A stretch of 64,000 bases of DNA from Escherichia coli (GCF_003018235.1 NZ_CP027437.1); one strand, 5' to 3'. Positions 6,947 through 41,153 are shown, counted from the stretch's first letter. Notes: generated from the sequence alone by a model not told the origin. Made by a program: numbers and translations.

Positions 6947-9784
6947 TTATTCAAAATAACGTTCAAAGTTATAAGCACTTTGTAATGAGGCCCGCTTACC
7001 CTTTTTAGCTAGATCTATACCACCACTTCTTAAACCCTCATCAAAACTTCCGAGCACATCATAAAAATGTGACATTTCATGAATCAAAGTTATGACTTGT
7101 GAATCACGACCGTCCAGGGGATCGTCAATAAATTTATTTCCAAGATAAATGGTATGGGTATAATCTCCATCATTAACTCTTCCATGAACATTAACATCCA
7201 TAAATTCAAAATTTTGGTACTTAATCCCCTCATTAATTTCAATTTCTTTTTTTACAGCGTTTAAAATTTTATTCCTGGCTGCCTCATCATCAACACCGAA
7301 TATATTTCCAAAACGCTCTTTATCGTTATCATTCCAACGAATCAACTCATCTCTTGCTGATTTTAATTTTTTACGCTGCGCTTCAAGAACAAGTTTCATA
7401 TCATTTTCACTGATCCTTTTCTCCTCTATCATTTCATAAACAGGATTTCCATAATTATCTGTAAGAGGTTTTCCATTATATCCAATTATAGCTACTCCAT
7501 TACCCGGCCCTGATGTAGAAAAATCTCTAATTGTATTAATTTTATATTTACCATTTGCGTCACTACCGCCAGGATTCAGTGCCAAGTGAGTAGGTCCATC
7601 AAGGATGATAGTGCCGTCTGAATTCATCACGAGAGTGCTGCTTCCCACAGTCAACGTAATGTTCGTTGCCGCAGTCAAATGAATGGCACCAGATTTTGAT
7701 GTGATGGTAATATCCCCTTCGACAGTCTCCGTGCAGGTTCCCGTTTCTACCGTCACTTCGCGTTTACCCGTTTTCACCGTCAGAGACTGGTCACCTTCTG
7801 TCACAGTAATATCCCGGTTGCCTTTGATGGTTTCGGTGTGCTTACCCTCAACAAATTCTGTGCGATCGATTTTTACCGTAGATGTTTCGTTATGAATGAT
7901 GGTTTTCGTCCGATCTGCCTTTACCGTGTGTGTTTCGTTATTTTTCACGACGGTATTCAGATCTTTCTCCGCAAGAAACCTCACTTCTTCCGCACCTGTT
8001 TTATCGTCAAAGCGCAGCATGTTTCCGTTGGTCGGCCCGCCATACAGCGAGTGGCTGAATATCCCGCTCTGCGACGCCATGCCCGGCAATCCCCACGGCG
8101 GCATGGTGTCCTGGTTATAGGTGCGCCCTACAATGATCGGTAAATCCGGGTCGCCGTTTTTGAAATCCACCAGCACTTCCTGGCCGATGCGCGGGATCTG
8201 GATCATCCCGAATCCTTTCCCCGCCCACGGGTAGCTGACGCGGATCCAGCAGGAGCTGTTTTCGTCATTCTTTCCGTAACGGTCCCAGCCAAACTGGACC
8301 TTCACCCGGCCATATTTATCCGTCCAGATTTCCTGCCCCGCAGGGCCGGTGACGATGGCGCTCTGCGGGCCTTTGGTGTGGGGTTTGCTCAGGGTTCGCT
8401 GTGGGCGGTAAACTTCGCTGGTGGGATGCAGTTCAAACGTGGTGACATAGGTAAAATGCTGCTCCTGACCGCTGTGCTGCGCATTATCCCGTAAAAACAG
8501 CGTGGTCTGTACCAGTAGGTATTCCTGGTTGACCTCTGCCGTTGGATGATTCATCAGCGTAAAGGTGTAACCCGTCATGAGGGTGCGGATATGACCTGCC
8601 CCATGTGCCCGGCTGCCGGGGCTGCGCTGCGCTTCCATACGAATGCGCGTCAGCATCTCGCCTTCGCCCGTAGTGAAGTAATCACCAGGCCATTCATAAT
8701 GCTCGTATTCAGCATGACCGGTATCACGCGGACTAGCCACGGTACTTTTAAGCAGCGAACGAGGCTTCATAAAATCAAAATCGTCCATCACCCACTTTCC
8801 AGTACGTAGCCTCTCACTGGCCGTAATGGTGTGGATAAATTCCTTGTCCAGTTTCAGACCTTCCTGGTGCCACTCCACCAGTGGCGAGTCAGGGCACGCT
8901 TTATGACCATTGATGGCATCCGCCAGCACCAGCGTATGGCTGTTCTCGCTGTGCTCAAACCACCAGTAAATTCCCCACTCCTGCATCAGGCGCTGGATGA
9001 AATCAAAATCCGTTTCACCGTACTGTACCTGCCAGGCACGAGGTGGATAATTTTCCACCAGCCGTTTTTCCACCGGAAAGGAATATTCATCCAGTACTTC
9101 ATCGAGAATATCCACCACGGTTTTATTCTGGAACGCCTTGTAGTCGCTGGTATGGGTCAGCAGCTTCAGCCATGGCTCAATGCGTAATTCATACGTTACC
9201 GAACGGCCCTCATGGCCGACCACCCGCGCTGCCGTCACCAGCCCGCTGATATACCGTTTTTCGCCACCGTCCAGTTCAATACTGACGCACAGGTCTTTGC
9301 CCACCATGGGCTGAAGCGGCAGGTTGGCAGCGGGAGAAACGTAACCCAGGTTCAGGATGTCCGGCGTTTTAAGCTGTACTGTGTAGGAAAACAGATTCCC
9401 AAGTCCTTCCGAACCATTCATGCCTGCAAACAAAAGCAACTGCGGCGGCACCGCGCTACCACTTACTGTGACGTTATGCGCCCCCGGACCACCGGCTGCA
9501 AGCGACGACGCCGCATCCTGAACTGTACCAGCCATATCCGAGATCCCTACTGCAGCAGCGGCAGCCTGCGCAGCAGTTACTGCAGCTTTAACCAGACCTG
9601 ACGGTTCCGGCAACGCACCAAACAGGTCCGCCGCGGCCTGTTCTGCCATCTCCTCGGCGGCACCAGATACATCGGTTACGGCTGAACTGGCGCTTACAGC
9701 ACTACTTTCTCCGGCTATCGGTGGCGTGGAGATAGCTGGCCCACCGTTACTGCCAGATTTATTACTCGTAGATACAAAACTCAT
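6947..9784 (-). CDS. vgrG: Evolved VgrG spike protein, 945 aa. It has an Ala/Ser-rich N-terminal extension and a C-terminal aspzincin-like (M35-like) zinc metallopeptidase domain.
   Basis: gp27/gp5-like core ([12 protein letters not shown]..., beta-helix repeats [25 protein letters not shown]...). The last roughly 207 aa are AT-rich and contain TLIHEMSHF (HExxH at nt 7067-7081). An Asp lies 9 residues after the second His (GSFDEGL), which is the aspzincin spacing. SD AAGGAA lies before the ATG at 9784. Confidence 0.9.
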
Positions 9785-21726: not shown

Positions 21727-23241
21727 TCAGGTATTACCCTGTTTTACCGACGGCAGTTTTGTGACCAGACGCAGTGATCCTGTTAACCCTTCAAGCTGAA
21801 AATGCGGGCGCAGGAAGAATTTGGCATCGTAATAATCCGGATTACCTTCCACCTCTTCCACCACCACTTCAGCAGCTGCCAGTGGGCGACGAGCTTTGGT
21901 TTCCTGTGAGGAGTTCACCGGATCGGCATCGACGTAGTTCATGATCCACTCATTGAGCCAGCGCTGCATATCTTCACGCTCTTTGAACGAGCCGATCTTG
22001 TCGCGCACGATACATTTGAGGAAGTGCGCAAACCGTGAACAGGCGAAAAGATATGGCAAACGAGCTGAGAGATTGGCGTTGGCCGTAGCGTCCGGATCGT
22101 AATACTCCTGCGGTTTTTGTAGAGACTGAGCGCCAATAAAGGCGGCGTAATCAGAGTTTTTGCGGTGGATAAGTGGGATAAAACCATTTTTCGCCAGTTC
22201 AGCTTCACGACGGTCAGAGATGGCAATTTCTGTCGGGCATTTCATATCCACGCCGCCGTCATCGGTCGGGAAGGTATGACAGGGCAGATTTTCCACCGCG
22301 CCACCAGATTCAACACCGCGGATCAACGTACACCAACCGTAATGTTTGAAAGAGCGGTTGATATTTACACCCATTGCATAGGCGGCATTGCTCCAGACAT
22401 ATTTGCTGTGATCTGCGCCATCCGCATCTTCTTCAAAATCAAACTCATCGACAGGGTTTGTTTTCGCACCATAAGGCAAACGGGAGAGAAAACGTGGCAT
22501 CGTCAGGCCAATGTAGCGAGAATCCTCACTTTTTCGCAGCGAGTTCCACGGTGCGTATTCGAGGTTTTGGGTCACAATTTTGGTCAGATCACGCGGGTTA
22601 GCCAGTTCCTGCCAGGAGTCCATCTGCAACACTGACGGAGAGGCCCCAGCAATAAACGGCGCATGGGCTGAGGCTGCCACTTTGGCAATGGAGCCGAGCA
22701 GATCCACATCCGGTGGCGTGTGATCAAAATAATAATCCGCAATGATACAACCGTAAGGTTCTCCGCCTAACTGTCCATATTCAGCTTCATAAAGCTTTTT
22801 GAACATGGGGCTTTGATCCCAGGCGATCCCTTTGTAACGCTTCATATTTTTCCGCAATTCATCCTTTGAAAGATTCATAAAACGGATTTTTAATTTTTCA
22901 TCGGTTTCAGTGTTGTAAACCAAATGTTCCATCCCACGCCAGGAGGACTCCAGTTTCTGAAATTCCGGATGACTCAGGATTAGTTTGATCTGCTCAGTTA
23001 ATTTGAAATCGATCTGCTCAATAATCGCAGCAATACTTTTATAAGCGTCGTCACTGACGGTGACGGTATTTGTCAAAGCCTGTTGGGCCAGCGTCTGAAC
23101 TGCTGCCTCAACAGCCTTTGCTGCCTGAGGTGTCTTGGGACGGAAGGCTTTATCCAGGAGCGAATCAAATTCAGTGTCCTGATAGGCAGTGGTTTGCGCA
23201 GCAGAGAGTTCGCCAGTCGCCAGAAGAGTATCGTTTACCAT
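21727..23241 (-). CDS. tssC: TssC sheath large subunit, 504 aa
   Basis: Size, position after tssB, and conserved VipB-like sequence. Confidence 0.95.
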   Translation of the reverse strand: MVNDTLLATGELSAAQTTAYQDTEFDSLLDKAFRPKTPQAAKAVEAAVQTLAQQALTNTVTVSDDAYKSIAAIIEQIDFKLTEQIKLILSHPEFQKLESSWRGMEHLVYNTETDEKLKIRFMNLSKDELRKNMKRYKGIAWDQSPMFKKLYEAEYGQLGGEPYGCIIADYYFDHTPPDVDLLGSIAKVAASAHAPFIAGASPSVLQMDSWQELANPRDLTKIVTQNLEYAPWNSLRKSEDSRYIGLTMPRFLSRLPYGAKTNPVDEFDFEEDADGADHSKYVWSNAAYAMGVNINRSFKHYGWCTLIRGVESGGAVENLPCHTFPTDDGGVDMKCPTEIAISDRREAELAKNGFIPLIHRKNSDYAAFIGAQSLQKPQEYYDPDATANANLSARLPYLFACSRFAHFLKCIVRDKIGSFKEREDMQRWLNEWIMNYVDADPVNSSQETKARRPLAAAEVVVEEVEGNPDYYDAKFFLRPHFQLEGLTGSLRLVTKLPSVKQGNT

Positions 23242-23265: not shown

Positions 23266-23811
23266 TTAGTCTGCTGTTCCCGTTTCACCTGATAAGACAC
23301 TTTCCTGTTGAGCGACAGGTTTTGGCGCACTAGCCAGAGCTTTCAGTAACGTAGGGTCTTGTAATAGTTTGTTGATAAGATTTTCTGCTCCCGCTTTACC
23401 ATCCATGTAGGTTTGTAGGTTGGCAAGCTGAGTACGCGCTTCCAGCAGCTGGTTCAGGGCATCCACCTTACGGGCAATCTGCGCAGGCGAAAAATCGTCC
23501 ATATTCTCTAACGTGATATCGACCATTAACTGCCCTTCGCCCGTCAGCGTATTGGGGACAGCAAACGCCACGCGCGGCGCAATGGCTTTCATCCTCTCGT
23601 TGAAGTTATCGATATCAATATCAAGGAATTTACGATCGGTGACCGGCGGCAGCTCTTCACGCGGTTTACCCGCCAGGTCGGCCAGCACCGCCATGACAAA
23701 CGGCAGTTCGATTTTTTTCTCGGAGCCGTAAATCTCAACGTCATACTCAATCTGCACGCGGGGCGCGCGGTTGCGGGCAATAAACTTCTGCGCGCTGTTG
23801 TTGATAGCCAT
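23266..23811 (-). CDS. tssB: TssB sheath small subunit, 181 aa
   Basis: The RAPRVQIEYDVEIYG motif is typical of TssB/VipA. Confidence 0.95.
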   Translation of the reverse strand: MAINNSAQKFIARNRAPRVQIEYDVEIYGSEKKIELPFVMAVLADLAGKPREELPPVTDRKFLDIDIDNFNERMKAIAPRVAFAVPNTLTGEGQLMVDITLENMDDFSPAQIARKVDALNQLLEARTQLANLQTYMDGKAGAENLINKLLQDPTLLKALASAPKPVAQQESVLSGETGTAD

Positions 23812-23872: not shown

Positions 23873-24163
23873 TTAAAAATCATACGCAGAGAGTATTTTT
23901 ATAATCTCTTTGTTTTCTTTGTACTTTTCCCGAAGCACAGGGAGTGATTTCTTCGCCGGAGGACACCAGGTATCAACCCCCTTTTCGATGTCTCTTTTAT
24001 CCTTCTTTGGTAAAGAACTGTCCCATTCACCAGCAAGATGCTGGCACATTTCCGCATTACTCAGAAAATGCTGCACATCCTGTGGTAAAGGCGGTTCCCC
24101 CTGAACACAGAAAGCGAACATCATTAACAGGAATGTCAACAACATCGGATAACGAAATGTCAT
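23873..24163 (-). CDS. Secreted 96-aa Cys-containing protein. Putative periplasmic immunity for the upstream M15-like peptidase.
   Basis: Signal peptide MTFRYPMLLTFLLMMFAFCVQG. Its start lies 2 nt after the upstream stop. Confidence 0.55.
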   Translation of the reverse strand: MTFRYPMLLTFLLMMFAFCVQGEPPLPQDVQHFLSNAEMCQHLAGEWDSSLPKKDKRDIEKGVDTWCPPAKKSLPVLREKYKENKEIIKILSAYDF

Positions 24164-24165
24164 AC

Positions 24166-24729
24166 TTAATGTCCATCAATTGACCAGTGAGGTATATCTG
24201 TATTGCCGCCAACAAATTTTCTGACGCCGTAACCCAGACCTACCGCCTGAAGCTGGGCATTCATTCCGGTTCGAGGTAGTGTATTAATTGCAACATTCTG
24301 ACCATTGCTCCCCGCAATTGTTAATGTTCCGCTCCAACTGATATTCATATCTATCGCAGTACCGCGTGTATGGTTGGAGCTCAGTGCAGGCGCGACATTC
24401 AGATTATTCATACCATAGGCCGTAACCATAGCCTGCGCCGCTTCAAGCGAGGCTTGCTCAGTCGGGTGAACCCACTCAATATCCATCCCCTCCATCGCCG
24501 GGACGTTTTTTGCCTGAACGATTTCATGAGCAATCAACCATGACCAGTGCATGAGATATGCTCTGGCGGGAGGGCGATATGTTGCAGAGATACTGACCCT
24601 TGCACGCGCATTACCAAGCGCGCGCAAAAAATTATCTACCGATGCACGAAAAGTCCCCTGCAAATCATTAGTGGAAGAACTTCCAGGAAAGCGACTGACC
24701 CACAGTGCGCCACTTAATTCTTTTGCCAT
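24166..24729 (-). CDS. Putative T6SS effector: LAS/M15-type (VanY-like) zinc peptidoglycan peptidase, 187 aa
   Basis: SxHxxGxAxD motif SNHTRGTAID at nt 24349-24378 (H-x6-D zinc ligands), plus a distal DIPHW His. No signal peptide. Sits 12 nt downstream of clpV, inside the T6SS operon. Confidence 0.65.
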   Translation of the reverse strand: MAKELSGALWVSRFPGSSSTNDLQGTFRASVDNFLRALGNARARVSISATYRPPARAYLMHWSWLIAHEIVQAKNVPAMEGMDIEWVHPTEQASLEAAQAMVTAYGMNNLNVAPALSSNHTRGTAIDMNISWSGTLTIAGSNGQNVAINTLPRTGMNAQLQAVGLGYGVRKFVGGNTDIPHWSIDGH

Positions 24730-24741
24730 AAGGATGCTCCA

Positions 24742-26223
24742 TTAATCCGTTTCAAAAATAATCTGTTCATCCTCATCAACACGAATGCGGATTTGCGTGA
24801 TGGCCGTTTTCTCTGTCATCGCCTGCAACCAATAACGGGACAGTTGTGGGAGGATATGTTGTTCGATATAGCCGATGAGCAAACGAGCGCCGGTTTCGTG
24901 CATCGGGCAGCGCGACACAATATGCGTAATCAGTTCATCGCCATACACCAGTGAAACGCCATGCTGCTCCGCCATCCGATCCATCAATCTGCCAAGATGC
25001 AGGCGGGCAATAACACCACGCGCGGTCTCATCCAGCGGTAAATAAGGAATAACCGTCACACGCCCCAGGAAAGCCGCCGGGAAGTGTTTACGTAACTCCG
25101 GCATTAACGCCTCTTTTAGTCCTGCCGAATCAGGCATCAGCGCCGGATCCTTTTCGATATGGCGTTTGTACTCGCTCCAAGTGGTTGCGCCGATGGTGCG
25201 CAGGGTGCCACGCGCCAGCGCCGGTTTCAGCAGGTTGGCAGCATCCCCCGTACCGGATGTACCACCAGCGCCCACCAGCGTGTGAACTTCATCAACAAAA
25301 AGGATTACCGGCTGCGGCGAGCGCGCGGCCTCTTCTAGCAACGCTTTCAGGCGGGATTCAAATTCACCCTTCATGGACGCCCCAGCCAGCAGCGCTCCAA
25401 CATCCAGTGACAGCAACCGCACGTTACGCAGTGAAGGCGGTACTTCCCCCCCGGCAATCGCCAGCGCGAATCCTTCCACCACTGCCGTTTTCCCGACTCC
25501 CGCTTCGCCGGTCAGTAGCGGGTTGTTCTGGCGACGGCGCAGCAGAATATCCGTCATAGTACGGATCTCGTGTTCGCGACCGGTGACCGGATCGATATTG
25601 CCTTCACGGGCCAGCGCAGTCATGTCCTGGCAGTATTTCGCCAGCGCGGATTTGCTTCCGGTTGATTCGCCGGCAAAGACCTGGCTAGCTTCCCCCGGTA
25701 CTGCAGAATTTAAATCCGAGCCGTCATAAGGCATTTCTGTTAATTCAGGAGATGAAGTGATTAAAGACGGAAGAATATCTAATAGTTCATCTACCGGTAG
25801 CTCTGCCAATGGCGCACAAATATTTTTTAACACCCGACACAATTCTGGCGTGGTTAACCAGGCAAGTAATAACCATCCACTACGAATTTTTTTATCGCCA
25901 AAGCGGATACTTGCCAACATCCAGGCTTTTTCAACAGAAAGATCGATATGATGGGAAAAATCGTTAATTACACTCGCTCCGGCAGGCAATATATTCAATT
26001 GCTGAATTAACGCCTTCTCAACATCAGCAGATGTTATTTGATAATGTCGAAGCACATTGTGAATGTCATTCTCTGGTTGTTGTATTAACTGATGCAACCA
26101 ATGCGTCAGTTCGACATAAGGATTAGCGCGTAATTTACAGAACGTCGTCGCAGATTCCAAAGATCTAAACAAAGATTTGGTTAGCTTTCCATACAGTGCA
26201 CTGCGCGAAACAGGAGTGTCCAT
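24742..26223 (-). CDS. clpV: ClpV AAA+ sheath-recycling ATPase carrying an apparent large in-frame internal deletion (493 aa instead of roughly 850-900)
   Basis: ClpV N-domain, then D1 Walker A GEAGVGKT and Walker B ILFVDEVH. At ...IEKDPAL|[26 protein letters not shown]... (junction about nt 25135-25145) the sequence jumps into the C-terminal small domain. There is no second Walker A. Confidence 0.8.
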
Positions 26224-26555
26224 CTGTTACACCTAATGATGTAAGAACATATAAATGATACATAAACATAACTGTACCGATTAAAACTTCTAATTAATAG
26301 AATTATCAAAAAGGCCGAATGAAACAATGATGCATATCACAGAACACAATGTAATATAGCAGGTAGTATCTTTTTCATGGTGATATTCAATAGAGCAAGC
26401 CAATTTCATACATACCATGAATATATTAAATTGAAAATCGCCACTATATATTTCCGCGAAAACTTATATTGATAAAGTAAATTGATCAGCATTGCTTATC
26501 TAAAAATTTAGAAAACTTATTCTTTTGAAAGAAACATTCTACACAGTGATACACA
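26224..26555. promoter_or_regulatory. AT-rich divergent control region between the clpV operon (-) and the tagH operon (+)
   Basis: A 332-bp very AT-rich non-coding gap between divergently oriented first genes. It contains the dyad GATAA-N20-TTATC around a GATC at 26484-26487. No promoter was mapped. Confidence 0.5.
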
Positions 26556-27470
26556 ATGAAACCAAATATTACGTGGGGACTCCAAAAAATACAGGCGCAC
26601 GGGATCGCCGATAACACAATTTACGCGACTGAAGGAACCCAAATTATCTTCACCGTTACCTCACCCTGGATTCCTGTTTTTGAGGTGAATGATGATGTAA
26701 AGATTGCCCTCAGTCTGACCCGCCACGAAGAAGCATGGTGGATTATCAATCAGTCTACCGAATATTGCTGTACGGTAAACGACCAGATTGTGGAACCTCA
26801 TCACCGTATGCGTCTGAATGAAGGCGATCTGATAGAATGGGGGTTATCTTCATGGTGCCTTGTGCACGGCAATCCATCATCTCCGGACCTGAGCGCAGTA
26901 AATACGACATCGCAGACTGCCACCATGTCGGAAACAATAACCGAATATCTGGATCTGGATTGGTTCAGGCAGCAGCATCTGACATCACAAAATCCATTCG
27001 ATATCATTCCTGTTCATGGAGCCTCCTCCACTGGAGAAGATGCTAAAAAAGAAAATGCCCTGACTCGACTTTATCAGGAATACCGCGAGGCGTTGTTATC
27101 TCCTGAACAAGATCTTCATCGCCATGCTGATCCTTTTCCCTTTAACGAAGAGCCCTCCTCACAGGATCTGGATTCATTGCGTGATCTGGTCACTGAAGCC
27201 GAGACATTGCAGGATATGGTCACTGGCGGGTTAAGCATTGACGCTATTCTCGATGTCCTGGACGCCACCGGCGAAGGGGAAACCGCCTGGCCTGCCGAAA
27301 AGACGCCCCCAGATATCCTGCACCTGCTATCCCCGGAATGCGCACCGGAAACAGCGCATAACACCGTTCTACCCGACCTGACACGCAAAGAGCATCGCAT
27401 CATTGGCATTGACAGCCATTATCGGATAAACCCGGCACAACACGGAGAGATATCTCATGACAAACAATAA
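26556..27470 (+). CDS. tagH: TagH-like protein with a degenerate N-terminal FHA-like domain, 304 aa
   Basis: First gene of the + operon. The segment CTVNDQIVEPHHRMRLNEGDLIEWG resembles the FHA core. The C-terminal half is acidic and low-complexity. Confidence 0.5.
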   Translation: MKPNITWGLQKIQAHGIADNTIYATEGTQIIFTVTSPWIPVFEVNDDVKIALSLTRHEEAWWIINQSTEYCCTVNDQIVEPHHRMRLNEGDLIEWGLSSWCLVHGNPSSPDLSAVNTTSQTATMSETITEYLDLDWFRQQHLTSQNPFDIIPVHGASSTGEDAKKENALTRLYQEYREALLSPEQDLHRHADPFPFNEEPSSQDLDSLRDLVTEAETLQDMVTGGLSIDAILDVLDATGEGETAWPAEKTPPDILHLLSPECAPETAHNTVLPDLTRKEHRIIGIDSHYRINPAQHGEISHDKQ

Positions 27471-28287
27471 CGAGCTACCGGCTACCCTGTCGGCGCTGCT
27501 GCGGGATTATTCCGTGGCGGAGGGCATTCAAATGGCAGAGCAGCAGGTCAGGATGCACCCGGCGCAGGCCTCCCGCCGCCACAGCTTATTTCAGTTATTG
27601 TGCGTGGCAGGCTACTGGTCGCGGGCACTGCAACAGATCCAGCTATGCGCCCGGATGGACGCAAATTATACCCGCGAAGCGCAGGTATTTGGCGAGCTGA
27701 TACGCTGTGAGATATACCGCCACGCCTGCTTTCAGGGAGAACAGCGGCCCGATTTTATTCTCCCGCCGCCCGCCTGGATGGAGGATCTGCTGACCGCCCT
27801 CGCCTGTAACGCTCGTGGTGAAGCGCAGGAAGCTGACGCCCACCGCAGCCGCGCACTTGAGGCCATAACAGATACTGCAGGGCAGTGGAATGGCGGCGCA
27901 TTTGACTGGATTAGCGACAGCGACTCCCGTACCGGTCCGGTACTCGAACTCATCGCGGGCGGAGTATATATCTGGCTGCCGTTTTCACAAATCTGTTCGC
28001 TAAAATCGCCGCGGCCTGCGCATCTGACCGATTTGATCTGGAAACCCGTCAACGTCACACTGAATAATGGCGACACACACAGTGCCTGGCTGTTTTCCCG
28101 CTACAGCGGCTCTGAAAAGGCTGCCGACTCCCTGCGTCTGTGCCGGGAAACGGTCTGGCAGGACGGGCCGGGAGAGACTCTGGTACAGGCGCTGGGTCAG
28201 AGGGTGTGGCTCACCGGTCACGGCGATATCAGCCTGCTGGATTTGTCCACCTGTACCTTTAACACCGCTGAAGGAAGCGACGCGTGA
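27457..28287 (+). CDS. tagJ: TagJ (ImpE/SciE family) T6SS accessory protein, 276 aa
   Basis: TPR-like N-terminal part and an ImpE-like C-terminal part (WISDSDSRTGPVLE...YIWLPF). Position before tssE. Confidence 0.7.
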   Translation: MTNNNELPATLSALLRDYSVAEGIQMAEQQVRMHPAQASRRHSLFQLLCVAGYWSRALQQIQLCARMDANYTREAQVFGELIRCEIYRHACFQGEQRPDFILPPPAWMEDLLTALACNARGEAQEADAHRSRALEAITDTAGQWNGGAFDWISDSDSRTGPVLELIAGGVYIWLPFSQICSLKSPRPAHLTDLIWKPVNVTLNNGDTHSAWLFSRYSGSEKAADSLRLCRETVWQDGPGETLVQALGQRVWLTGHGDISLLDLSTCTFNTAEGSDA

Positions 28288-28793: not shown

Positions 28794-30677
28794 ATGGATC
28801 CACGGCTACTGGAATACTACAACCGCGAACTGAGCTATCTGCGGGAAACGGGAGCCGAATTTGCCGCCCGTCATCCTAAAGTCGCCGCCCGACTGGGTAT
28901 GCAGGGAACGGATATTGCCGATCCGTATGTGGAGCGAATGGTCGAGGCCTTCAGCTTCCTGACCGCCCGCACGCAGCTAAAAATTGACGCTGAATTCCCC
29001 CGTTTCACCCAGCGTCTGCTGGAAGTGGTCAGCCCCAATTACGTCACACCCACGCCCTCAATGAGCGTGGCGCAGCTTCATCCCGATCCGGAAGAAGGCG
29101 ATCTGGCGAAGGGATTCACCGTCCCGCGCAACACGGCCTTTTTTTCCGCCATTCCGGAAGGCGAAAGTACCGCCTGCCAGTTTCGTAGCAGCCAGAATGT
29201 GACGCTGTGGCCACTTGCCATCGAAGAGGTGCGGCTGACCGCCGCGCCGCCGGATATGCCTGCCCTGCACCGCTACCTGCCAGCCAACATTCACGTCGCT
29301 GGTGCGCTGCGTATTACCCTGCGCACCTTTGGTGAACTGACGTTCAGTCAGCTTGCAGGGCTGAACAAGCTGCCATTTTATCTCTGCGGCGAGGAGCGCA
29401 CGGCCTCACACCTGTTCGAACTACTGCATACCAGCGCCATCGCGAGCCTGGCTGGCATTCCGGGGCATTTTGACGGCGCACTGGATGTGAATCTGAAACA
29501 GCCCGTTATGTACGAAGGCCTGGATCCGGATCAGGGACTGTTGCCGCTGGCGTGGAATGTGTTTCACGGCCATAACCTGCTACATGAATATTTTACCTGT
29601 CCGGAACGCTTCTTTTTTTTCACCCCGACAGGCCTGTCTGCCGGGTTACAGAAAATTAACGGCGGCGTGGCGGAGATTGTTATCCTGCTGAACCGCCTGC
29701 CGCCGGACTGGCTGATCCACCAGACAAACGCGGCACAGTTCAGCCTGTTCTGTACCCCAGTTATCAACCTGTTTCCCCGCGTCGCCGCCCGGATCGATGT
29801 CACGCACAGCACGACGGAACAGCATCTGGTGGTGGACAGAACCCATCCGCTGGATTATGAGGTGTTCTCGGTCCAGGAAGTGGAAGGGCTGGAAACTGAC
29901 ACCACACGGAAGATGGCCTTTCGCCCGCTCTACCACACCCGCAATAATGATGAAGGCAATCACGGACGTTATTTTTCCCTGCGCCGGGAGCCGCGCCGGT
30001 TGTCGGAAAATGCCCGCCGCTATGGCACCCGCACCTCCTATACAGGATCAGAAGTGTTCCTGTCGCTGGTTGACCAGTATGAAGCGCCGTACCCGGAAAA
30101 TCTGCGCCATATCACCATCACGGCTATGGTCACCAACCGCGATCTGCCCTGTCTTATTGCCCGCAATGGACGGGACGATCTGACCGTGGATGCGGCCATC
30201 CCGGTGGCGGGCGTGGGGCTTATCCGTCCGCCGCGTCCGCCGCAGCCTCCGCTGGCTGAACGTGAAATGGCCTGGCGGTTGATCCGCCAGTTATCCTTTA
30301 ACTATCTGCCGCTGGCCGATCTGGATCACCGTACCGGTGGTCAGGCGCTGCGCGATCTGCTTAACCTGTTTATTCCGGCGCATGACAGTCCGCAGTCGCG
30401 CCAGGTGCGCAGCCTGATTGGCTGCAACACCACCCCGGTCACCCGCCGTCTGCCCGGTTCCGGGCTGCTGGTCTATGGGCGCGGCGTCAGTTGTGAACTG
30501 ACCGTGGATGAGGAGGGGTTCTCCGGTATCAGTCCGTATCTGTTCGGTCTGGTGTTGGAGCACTATATCGCCCGTCATGTTTCCATTAATACCTTCTCGC
30601 AGATGACGCTGCACAGCATGCAGCGCGGCAAAATTATGACCTGGCCTGCCAGGGCGGGACAGCGGGGAAGCGTATGA
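28794..30677 (+). CDS. tssF: TssF baseplate protein, 627 aa
   Basis: N-terminus MDPRLLEYYNRELSYLRETGAEFAARHPKVA is canonical TssF. Confidence 0.95.
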   Translation: MDPRLLEYYNRELSYLRETGAEFAARHPKVAARLGMQGTDIADPYVERMVEAFSFLTARTQLKIDAEFPRFTQRLLEVVSPNYVTPTPSMSVAQLHPDPEEGDLAKGFTVPRNTAFFSAIPEGESTACQFRSSQNVTLWPLAIEEVRLTAAPPDMPALHRYLPANIHVAGALRITLRTFGELTFSQLAGLNKLPFYLCGEERTASHLFELLHTSAIASLAGIPGHFDGALDVNLKQPVMYEGLDPDQGLLPLAWNVFHGHNLLHEYFTCPERFFFFTPTGLSAGLQKINGGVAEIVILLNRLPPDWLIHQTNAAQFSLFCTPVINLFPRVAARIDVTHSTTEQHLVVDRTHPLDYEVFSVQEVEGLETDTTRKMAFRPLYHTRNNDEGNHGRYFSLRREPRRLSENARRYGTRTSYTGSEVFLSLVDQYEAPYPENLRHITITAMVTNRDLPCLIARNGRDDLTVDAAIPVAGVGLIRPPRPPQPPLAEREMAWRLIRQLSFNYLPLADLDHRTGGQALRDLLNLFIPAHDSPQSRQVRSLIGCNTTPVTRRLPGSGLLVYGRGVSCELTVDEEGFSGISPYLFGLVLEHYIARHVSINTFSQMTLHSMQRGKIMTWPARAGQRGSV

Positions 30678-32817: not shown

Positions 32818-32850
32818 CGAAAGCCCGAATCAGTAATGATTCGGGCTTTC
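32818..32850 (-). terminator. aspV terminator hairpin
   Basis: Perfect inverted repeat gaaagcccgaatc / gattcgggctttc, immediately 3' of tRNA-Asp. Confidence 0.75.
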
Positions 32851-32857
32851 TGAATAT

Positions 32858-32934
32858 TGGCGGAACGGACGGGACTCGAACCCGCGACCCCCTGCGTGAC
32901 AGGCAGGTATTCTAACCGACTGAACTACCGCTCC
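32858..32934 (-). tRNA. aspV: tRNA-Asp (GUC), 77 nt including CCA
   Basis: The reverse complement reads GGAGCGGTAGTTCAGTCGGTTAGAATACCTGCCTGTCACGCAGGGGGTCGCGGGTTCGAGTCCCGTCCGTTCCGCCA. Adjacent to dnaQ, as in K-12. Confidence 0.97.
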
Positions 32935-39202: not shown

Positions 39203-40117
39203 ATGAAAGCCACGTCGGAAGAACTCGCCATTTTTGTTTCGGTCGTCGAAAGCGGCAGCTTTAGCCGGGCAGCGGAACAATTAGGGCAAGCAAACTCAGC
39301 GGTAAGCCGGGCGGTGAAAAAGCTGGAGATGAAACTTGGCGTTAGCCTGCTTAATCGCACCACGCGACAACTTAGCCTAACGGAAGAAGGCGAGCGTTAT
39401 TTTCGTCGCGTACAGTCAATTTTGCAGGAGATGGCAGCGGCAGAATCAGAAATTATGGAGACGCGTAATACACCGCGTGGACTGTTGCGCATCGATGCCG
39501 CAACTCCAGTGGTGCTGCACTTTCTGATGCCGTTAATTAAGCCTTTCCGTGAACGCTATCCGGAAGTCACTTTATCGCTAGTCTCCTCCGAAACGATTAT
39601 TAATTTGATCGAAAGAAAAGTGGATGTCGCGATACGCGCTGGTACGTTAACGGATTCCAGCTTACGTGCCAGGCCGTTATTTAACAGTTATCGAAAAATT
39701 ATCGCCTCCCCCGATTATATTTCCCGCTACGGGAAGCCAGAAACGATCGACGATTTAAAGCAACATGTTTGCCTGGGATTCACTGAACCCGCTTCCCTCA
39801 ATACCTGGCCGATAGCCTGTAGTGATGGACAATTACATGAGGTGAAGTACGGTTTGTCATCCAATAGTGGGGAAACACTGAAACAGCTTTGCCTGAGTGG
39901 CAACGGGATTGCGTGTTTGTCCGACTACATGATCGACAGAGAAATCGCTCGCGGAGAATTGGTGGAGTTAATGGCAGATAAAGTATTGCCAGTGGAAATG
40001 CCATTTAGTGCAGTCTATTACAGCGACCGTGCGGTAAGTACGCGCATCCGGGCTTTTATCGATTTCCTTAGCGAGCATGTAAAAACAGCTCCCGGAGGAG
40101 CTGTCAGAGAGGCTTAA
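39203..40117 (+). CDS. yafC: LysR-family transcriptional regulator YafC, 304 aa
   Basis: N-terminal wHTH ([23 protein letters not shown]). Synteny. Confidence 0.9.
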
Positions 40118-40916
40118 TCCCATTCAGGAGCCAGACCTTCCGGGCTAACCAGGCGATCGTTGCAATCCAGTGCGGCGATCGCTTTTTTATCTTCGGCATC
40201 AAGCTGTAAATTTTGTGCCTTAAGATTACTTTCCAGGTTTTTACGTTTAGTAGAAGAAGGAATTACGGAGTAACCTTCCCCCATAGCCCACGCCAGAATC
40301 ACTTGTGCCGGAGTCGCATTGTGTTTAGCTGCGATACGAGCAATAACCTCATCTTTCAGGGCCTTACCATACGCCAGTGTCATATAGGAAGTAATATGGA
40401 TGCCGTGCTGTTTAGCCAGGCAACCACTTTACGGTTTTGCAGATAAGGAGAGAGTTCAATCTGGTTAGTAGCGATGTTTTCAGCGCCAACAGCAGCAATC
40501 GCCTTTTCCATCAATGGGATCGTGAAGTTGGAAATACCGATCTCACGCGTCAGCCCTTGTTTTTTGGCTTCCAGCAGCGCCTGCATAAACTCTTCAACAG
40601 AGACTTCATCGTTTGGTGACGGCCAGTGGATTAGCGTCAGATCAACATAATCGATACGCAATTTTTGCAGGCTCTCTTTCAGACTCGGGATCAATTTGTC
40701 TTTGCTGAGATTTTCAATCCAGATTTTAGTGGTGATGTAGAGTTCATGACGTGGCACGCCACTTTCTGCAATCGCGTGACCTACTGCGGCTTCGTTATCA
40801 TAGATTTGTGCGGTATCAATTGCGCGATAACCAAGTTCAAGCGCCGTTTTCACAGATGAAATAACAACGTCGTCTTTCAGACGGAAAGTACCTAAACCAA
40901 ATGCAGGGATAGCCAT
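40114..40916 (-). pseudogene. dkgB: 2,5-diketo-D-gluconate reductase B (aldo-keto reductase) disrupted by a 1-nt frameshift
   Basis: Two abutting ORFs, 40380-40916 (178 aa) and 40114-40383 (89 aa), together cover a full AKR. The frame changes after ...NRKVVAW near nt 40415-40420, and the first ORF ends in the out-of-frame tail [11 protein letters not shown]. Confidence 0.85.
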
Positions 40917-41064: not shown

Positions 41065-41076
41065 ATTCTTAATAAG

Positions 41077-41153
41077 TGGCGGAACGGACGGGACTCGAAC
41101 CCGCGACCCCCTGCGTGACAGGCAGGTATTCTAACCGACTGAACTACCGCTCC
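41077..41153 (-). tRNA. aspU: tRNA-Asp (GUC), distal tRNA of rrnH
   Basis: Identical 77-nt sequence to the copy at 32858-32934. Confidence 0.97.

Follow-up and report, generated by a model that had tools for sequence, protein, structure and literature searches.

An in-frame deletion between direct repeats in tssH (clpV) of an Escherichia coli type VI secretion cluster

The first gene of the minus-strand type VI secretion system (T6SS) run in the window, by which we mean the whole 64-kb stretch of Escherichia coli DNA analysed here, is tssH, also called clpV. Its reading frame opens with ATG and continues without interruption for 493 codons to the stop codon. The initial annotation described the frame as intact and proposed that it had lost, in frame, the end of the first AAA+ module (D1) and nearly all of the second (D2). 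The locus raises the question of whether this short gene is a deletion allele, a natural short form of ClpV or a product of assembly, and of what its product might still do.

A deletion of 1152 bp between two direct repeats

Profile matches and genomic position both relate the 493-aa protein to TssH. Its top NCBIfam match is TIGR03345, the ClpV1/TssH equivalog, which aligns in two stretches but, with 576.8 bits, falls short of the curated 884.95-bit cut-off; the best stretch pairs residues 14-362 with profile positions 1-338 of 852. Pfam places AAA at residues 236-346 and ClpB_D2-small at residues 397-472. The frame occupies the orthologous place in the T6SS cluster, being syntenic with the tssH genes annotated in strains MEI003 and 06-00048, where tssH measures 2634 nt and encodes 877 aa. 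NCBI, UniRef and Logan all list the exact 493-aa sequence under the automated name 'AAA family ATPase [Escherichia coli]'. In a motif count, as first described, each Walker motif occurs a single time: Walker A as GEAGVGKT at aa 239-246 and Walker B as ILFVDEV at aa 307-313. A scan of the whole frame detects neither RRF nor the GYVGY pore loop, and GxxGxGK[ST] does not recur. The 877-aa orthologue, counted in the same way, has two copies of each Walker motif, RRF at position 364 and GYVGY at position 664. The 493-aa TssH does not comprise the two AAA+ modules, D1 and D2 with a Walker A and a Walker B each.

Comparison with other genomes defines the missing segment. A 3001-bp query spanning window positions 24000-27000 is matched by 435 complete E. 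coli genomes, with at least 80% query cover in 114. Among the 30 best matches listed, the query splits into two aligned pieces across about 4153 bp or more, or into three pieces where IS3 has inserted; the closest of the matches listed is E. coli MEI003, at 99.5% identity. In an ungapped comparison, the window gene corresponds to the start of the full-length gene over its first 1087 coding nucleotides and to the end over its last 410, and the left and right homologies share a perfect 15-nt overlap, AGGATCCGGCGCTGA. The full-length gene has this sequence at coding nucleotides 1073 and 2225, a spacing of 1152 bp, and the gap relative to the MEI003 gene is exactly 1152 bp, or 384 codons. The 15-mer is found twice in the full-length genes of L001, L002 and L006; the window and three further carriers of the short allele (L003-L005) have a single copy. 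Identical repeats thus flank the segment in the full-length gene and one copy is kept in the product, the arrangement that defines a direct-repeat deletion; a single event removed 1152 bp between two perfect 15-bp repeats. The loss of 1.1-1.2 kb anticipated by the initial annotation agrees with this size, and the junction it had placed at 25135-25145 was right to within a few bases (Table 1).

Outside the gap the allele is nearly indistinguishable from its full-length counterpart. Relative to the TssH of MEI003 (WP_024229215.1, 877 aa), residues 1-362 are 99% identical, the final 410 nt, comprising the repeat and all that follows up to the stop codon, are identical, and residues 363-746 are absent (equivalently 359-742, since DPAL is coded on either side). 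The locus and its neighbours are also alike, with tagK and tagJ lying upstream in divergent orientation, and tssB-tssC downstream after two small genes. TssH of the Salmonella SPI-6 type is more distant, at about 84% identity. The 384-codon gap against full-length alleles of 99% identity substantiates the proposed in-frame loss, which takes in the end of D1 and almost the whole of D2.

The 15-mer is the longest perfect direct repeat of full-length tssH, and a 15-nt repeat of any sequence appears in only 12 of 2000 codon-shuffled versions of that gene. Its two copies code for (K/E)DPAL, one in D1 and the other at the equivalent position in D2. Because the peptide and its frame are common to both copies, recombination between them necessarily yields an in-frame product, and the open reading frame gives no sign of selection, its maintenance across the deletion being forced by the repeats. 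The event itself would most likely have been RecA-independent replication slippage or short-homology recombination.

Table 1. Features of the tssH deletion allele and of associated genes in the window (coordinates counted from the first nucleotide of the window)
Feature	Position	Strand	Basis or remarks
tssH/clpV deletion allele	24742..26223	(-)	ORF, Pfam, TIGR03345, alignment to full-length gene
ClpV1-type N-terminal domain, aa 1-160, with R7 and D88	25744..26223	(-)	4uqw match, class definition
D1 AAA+ large subdomain to ...EKDPAL, aa 200-362	25138..25626	(-)	Pfam, TIGR03345, ClpB alignment
D1 Walker A	25486-25509	(-)	Motif count
D1 Walker B	25285-25305	(-)	Motif count
Deletion junction, sole remaining copy of AGGATCCGGCGCTGA (coding strand)	25137..25151	(-)	K358(part)-D-P-A-L-M363(part)
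D2 remnant, aa 363-493: helix, FLGR, VTVIPYL, small domain, GAR	24745..25137	(-)	ClpB_D2-small, ClpB alignment
Arginine-finger residue R388 (FLGR)	25060-25062	(-)	ClpB alignment
Sensor-2 GAR residue R447	24883-24885	(-)	ClpB alignment
tagJ (ImpE family), likely ClpV N-domain-TssB adaptor	27457..28287	(+)	PF07024, E 6.9e-41; intact
tssC, sheath gene (ClpV substrate)	21727-23241	(-)	Full length
tssB, sheath gene (ClpV substrate)	23266-23811	(-)	Full length

Carriers of the junction and other shortened alleles

The exact 493-aa protein is represented by 31 blocks in the position index, with 24 contigs read, and by 21 contigs in the cluster table, the longest of 5.01 Mb. A variant with Q111 in place of K111, Q111 being the ancestral state, is found on six further contigs. 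The tssH frame is still open in all carriers. Three of them were compared with the window over longer distances: GCA_026700625.1 (L003) shows no SNPs over 21.5 kb, GCA_012768955.1 (L004) shows four over 21.5 kb, and SRR6362503 (L005) shows two over 18.1 kb, against a difference of 0.4-0.7% from the nearest intact genome. Of the complete E. coli genomes in RefSeq, 430 contain the tssH locus, and none of these has a match across the junction. The near-identity of the carriers, together with this absence, indicates that the deletion is real, arose once and is inherited clonally in one fairly tight clone, and that it is rare in E. coli.

Two alternatives would remove the need for a deletion altogether. 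A collapse between repeats in assembly, or another sequencing artefact, might be suspected from the fact that a repeat bounds the missing segment; this repeat is, however, only 15 bp long, presumably below the k-mers of assemblers, and the identical junction is shared by about 30 contigs, assembled independently from different samples and with different assemblers, which include NCBI assemblies, Logan assemblies of read runs and the 5.01-Mb contig, as well as by the two allelic sub-variants. The probability of an artefact is negligible on these grounds, and the assembly collapse for which the initial annotation had allowed can be set aside. A natural short ClpV family, with contiguous homology and no deletion, was the other reading it had left room for, and the databases do hold other short TssH proteins. 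These are, however, separate deletions, each with its own junction, in otherwise full-length alleles of E. coli or Salmonella, while the window allele is 99% identical to the full-length form on both sides of a clean gap, is confined to one clone and has full-length nearest relatives, so that a short family is next to impossible. The clonal deletion is the reading that we follow below.

Within the clone, the four SNPs over 21.5 kb are all nonsynonymous and all located in T6SS genes; no synonymous, intergenic or flanking-housekeeping SNPs were seen over the same distance. With MEI003 as the outgroup, tssH Q111K (window position 25893) and tagK K116N (26903) are derived in the lineage of the window, and tssF R611H and tssG T11P (equivalents of window positions 30625 and 30704) are derived in L004. 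The pattern suggests relaxed constraint following the loss of ClpV, with four substitutions being too few for a test. The junction itself offers a marker for following this E. coli clone.

The other short TssH proteins, brought up by a search with the 493-aa sequence, include at least 16 distinct in-frame deletion alleles from E. coli and Salmonella, which lack 26-312 residues when mapped on the 877-aa protein (database matches P0003, P0008-P0014, P0016-P0021, P0023, P0025, P0027 and P0028). Some are carried widely: P0003, of 723 aa, is found on 39 contigs and P0019, of 780 aa, on 52; P0023 measures 574 aa. Several remove the D2 Walker A only, and many end on the right just past this motif, near TETALALAE. 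The type of lesion is the same as in the window allele and often lies between short repeated peptide motifs; the junctions differ, and the window allele, lacking 384 residues, has the largest loss among the alleles mapped. In three further proteins the N-terminal part of tssH is fused to another sequence, namely to the OmpA-like C-terminus of TssL in P0030 (E. coli) and P0037 (Salmonella), and to a non-T6SS protein, aldehyde dehydrogenase-like by eye, in P0040; the deletions underlying these fusions take out much of the cluster.

We considered whether tssH is a special hotspot of in-frame deletion. A control search with TssM of the same cluster returned a similar number of variants shortened by protein length, among them proteins of 1208, 1203, 1192, 1142, 1104, 1096, 1071, 1044, 994, 969, 869 and 803 aa; the 1208-aa length is found on 54 and 30 contigs, and the 869-aa length on 117. 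Since the shortened set of TssM is comparable by length to that of tssH, the hotspot was rejected, and the variants are better ascribed to general T6SS decay in very deeply sampled species.

Composition and predicted function of the hybrid protein

The elements lost and kept were mapped by aligning a full-length orthologue to E. coli ClpB and applying the established motifs of Hsp100 proteins. From D1, the deletion removes the arginine fingers (TRRF), beta5 and the small domain or lid; the coiled-coil middle domain is lost as well; and from D2, the Walker A (GPSGVGKT), the pore loop (GYVGY), the Walker B (LLDE) and sensor 1 (TTN) are gone. The protein keeps its N-domain and the D1 Walker A, Walker B and sensor 1, the last of which is contained as GATT in the D1 large subdomain, now devoid of RRF arginine fingers, beta5 and lid. 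From D2 it keeps the arginine finger, the former beta5 VTVIPYL, sensor 2 and the small domain; the arginine finger is R388 of FLGR, which aligns with the D2 arginine-finger segment FINR of ClpB. The initial annotation had recognized in the C-terminal piece the very end of D2 and the small domain; the small domain is indeed present, and the piece also brings in R388 and the sensor-2 residue R447. As the junction lies at structurally equivalent points of D1 and D2, the product amounts on paper to an N-domain followed by one hybrid AAA+ module.

The N-domain links the protein to a particular class of ClpV. Residues 4-160 match the N-domain of Pseudomonas aeruginosa ClpV1 (4uqw) with an E value of 2.4e-40, and the matches to the N-domains 4hh5 and 3zri are far weaker. 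The ClpV1/TagJ class is defined by an Arg/Asp pair in the groove of the N-domain and by the presence of a TagJ/HsiE gene (Forster et al. 2014, PMC4239648), and TagJ of P. aeruginosa has ClpV1 and the N-terminus of TssB as binding partners (PMC4239648). R7 and D88 of the 493-aa protein align with R6 and D87 of ClpV1, and an ImpE/TagJ gene is present in the cluster. The likeness to P. aeruginosa ClpV1 thus covers the N-domain match, the class-defining Arg and Asp and the adjacent tagJ; it ends at the ATPase, which is two-ringed in ClpV1 and reduced to one hybrid module here. The groove residues and the adjacent tagJ favour recruitment by way of TagJ and TssB. It had been assumed earlier that the N-domain could bind TssC, a contact of the Vibrio type; given the class, it appears more plausible that the 493-aa protein would reach the sheath through TagJ and TssB.

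Structure prediction bears on whether the two halves of the module could join. The AlphaFold2 model of the 493-aa protein, built on a 42-sequence alignment, has a mean pLDDT of 77.5 and a pTM of 0.39; pLDDT falls below 50 at residues 357-359, beside the junction, and residues 388-395, the former D2 beta5, form coil and no strand. The control was P0026, a near-full-length E. coli TssH of 761 aa that lacks only part of the N-domain. In the control model this D2 segment does form a strand (E658-661), within a block whose pLDDT is about 89, as does D1 beta5 (E250-254). A Foldseek search of the PDB yielded nothing beyond the Hsp100 N-domain and NBD1 structures to be expected, for example 1jbk, with an rmsd of 3.1 over 170 columns. 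The model, itself of moderate confidence, weakly suggests that D2 beta5 does not complete the D1 sheet.

The D2 ring is the main threading motor in proteins of the ClpB type. The only pore loop left in the 493-aa protein is that of D1, which reads SMKGEF where D1 of ClpB has the pore tyrosine (KYRGEF). Unfoldase function is likely to have been lost, even if the chimeric module, having all types of AAA+ motif, may retain some ATPase activity or oligomerization. The contrary reading takes the hybrid for a single-ring ClpV, comparable to class II Clp/Hsp100 unfoldases such as ClpX and HslU, that disassembles sheaths with one AAA+ module, perhaps more slowly. It can draw on the fusion at the equivalent DPAL of both modules, on the complete motif set supplied by D1 (Walker A, Walker B and sensor 1) and D2 (arginine finger, sensor 2 and small domain), and on a frame maintained in about 30 assemblies. 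Yet the conserved D2 GYVGY is missing, the model leaves D2 beta5 undocked from the D1 sheet and has low confidence at the junction, the allele is limited to one recent clone and absent from the 430 complete genomes, and the repeats impose an in-frame outcome for which selection is not needed. A functional hybrid seems very improbable. If it did exist, a working one-ring ClpV would mean that a two-tier Hsp100 can be reduced to a one-tier unfoldase in one step, and an active hybrid module, unlikely as it is, would be a useful natural construct for work on the Hsp100 mechanism. The allele could also act as a dominant-negative brake, its N-domain docking on contracted sheaths, by way of TagJ and TssB or of TssC, without unfolding them, so that the apparatus would be locked once it had fired. 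In favour of this, the protein has an undamaged N-domain of the ClpV1/TagJ class, tagJ, tssB and tssC are intact, and TagJ contacts both ClpV1 and TssB in P. aeruginosa (PMC4239648). In a cluster without a functional ClpV, however, there is nothing to dominate, the phenotype would be hard to tell from that of a null allele, and selection for the allele is without evidence; we consider such a brake unlikely. The best explanation, which we hold with good probability, is a clonal, slippage-type deletion allele of tssH/clpV that has lost its function and permits low-efficiency firing at best.

The surrounding cluster and T6SS decay

The remainder of the cluster is undamaged, as the initial annotation had found for the other core genes and the toxin and immunity genes. 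The T6SS proteins of MEI003 (TssA/B/C/E/F/G/J/K/L/M, Hcp, TagF, TagJ, TagK, Tae4/Tai4, and Tlde1 with its neighbour gene) all align to the window over their full length and without gaps, and the corresponding window frames are of matching or greater length. After tssH, the minus-strand run continues with tssBC, tae4/tai4, hcp, tssJKL, tlde1, tssM, vgrG and rhs; VgrG is an intact 945-aa frame and is followed by a 1508-aa PAAR-Rhs protein. The cluster is the aspV/dnaQ-linked, SPI-6-like T6SS of E. coli. A second T6SS or a second clpV may be present elsewhere in the genome, the view taken here being that of the 64-kb window.

Several further features of the region were recorded. Stretches 32841-32934 and 41066-41153 match both annotated tRNA-Asp genes of MEI003 as well as one another; one adjoins tssA/dnaQ at the border of the T6SS island, the other lies beside an rRNA operon, which fits an insertion site of the aspV type. 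The two small minus-strand genes between tssH and tssB encode 187 aa (24166-24729) and 96 aa (23873-24163), and neither product has a Pfam match. The larger gene is annotated in 06-00048 as a frameshifted 'peptidoglycan-binding domain-containing protein', and the stretch SNHTRGTAID in its product resembles the SxHxxGxAxD motif of LAS/M15 peptidases; the smaller product has a hydrophobic N-terminus. The two genes may constitute an effector-immunity pair. VgrG (6947-9784, minus strand) has a C-terminal extension with an Aspzincin_M35 match of E 2.4e-6 and 28.5 bits, under the cut-off of 30; its orthologue in MEI003 is identical over the first 726 aa and is called a partial pseudogene by PGAP. 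By comparison with MEI003, dkgB (40117-40916, minus strand) lacks 1 bp of a CCC run; the resulting frameshift near 40416 splits the 267-aa protein into residues 1-167 and 168-267 in different frames and leaves an ORF of 178 aa. The frameshift could represent a real pseudogene or a homopolymer sequencing error.

In the literature we found related cases of T6SS degeneration and none that concern this specific tssH allele. O157:H7 carries a 28-bp repeat insertion in tssM, a nonsense mutation in vipB and a 12-bp deletion in clpV (PMC12981562), clade C of ST131 has ISEc12 in tssM (PMC10711316), and the avian STEC strain RM9513 has a deletion of about 2.4 kb from tagO to tssH between 10-bp direct repeats (PMC10562709). 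The window allele resembles all three in the lineage-specific inactivation of a core T6SS gene while the cluster is otherwise preserved, and shares with RM9513 recombination between short direct repeats. Unlike the RM9513 deletion, that of the window allele is confined to tssH, preserves the reading frame, has a flanking repeat of 15 bp rather than 10, and joins equivalent points of two AAA+ modules. It is another case of the known decay of T6SS in E. coli, and its only distinctive feature is the origin of its repeats in the paralogous DPAL-coding segments of D1 and D2.

The loss-of-function reading makes predictions for the clone. The 493-aa protein would most likely be unable to form a two-tier hexamer or to thread TssC, and contracted sheaths would in consequence not be actively recycled. 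Since the deletion is in frame, the effector and immunity genes downstream should not suffer from polarity, and with the apparatus otherwise intact their products are probably still made by the clone. The system would assemble, its sheaths would be poorly recycled, and firing would be inefficient at most, as in a clpV knockout. A clpV deletion mutant of EAEC keeps an intermediate-low antibacterial activity and serves as an 'intermediate minus' control, placed between a tagA mutant and a null deletion of the cluster (bioRxiv 10.1101/2025.02.08.637259); clpV is, by this intermediate activity, not absolutely required for firing.

Although each of its genes is an intact open reading frame, the T6SS cluster described here should not be scored as fully functional. 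The tssH allele provides a clean example of how paralogous motifs in a gene with duplicated domains serve as substrates for in-frame deletion.
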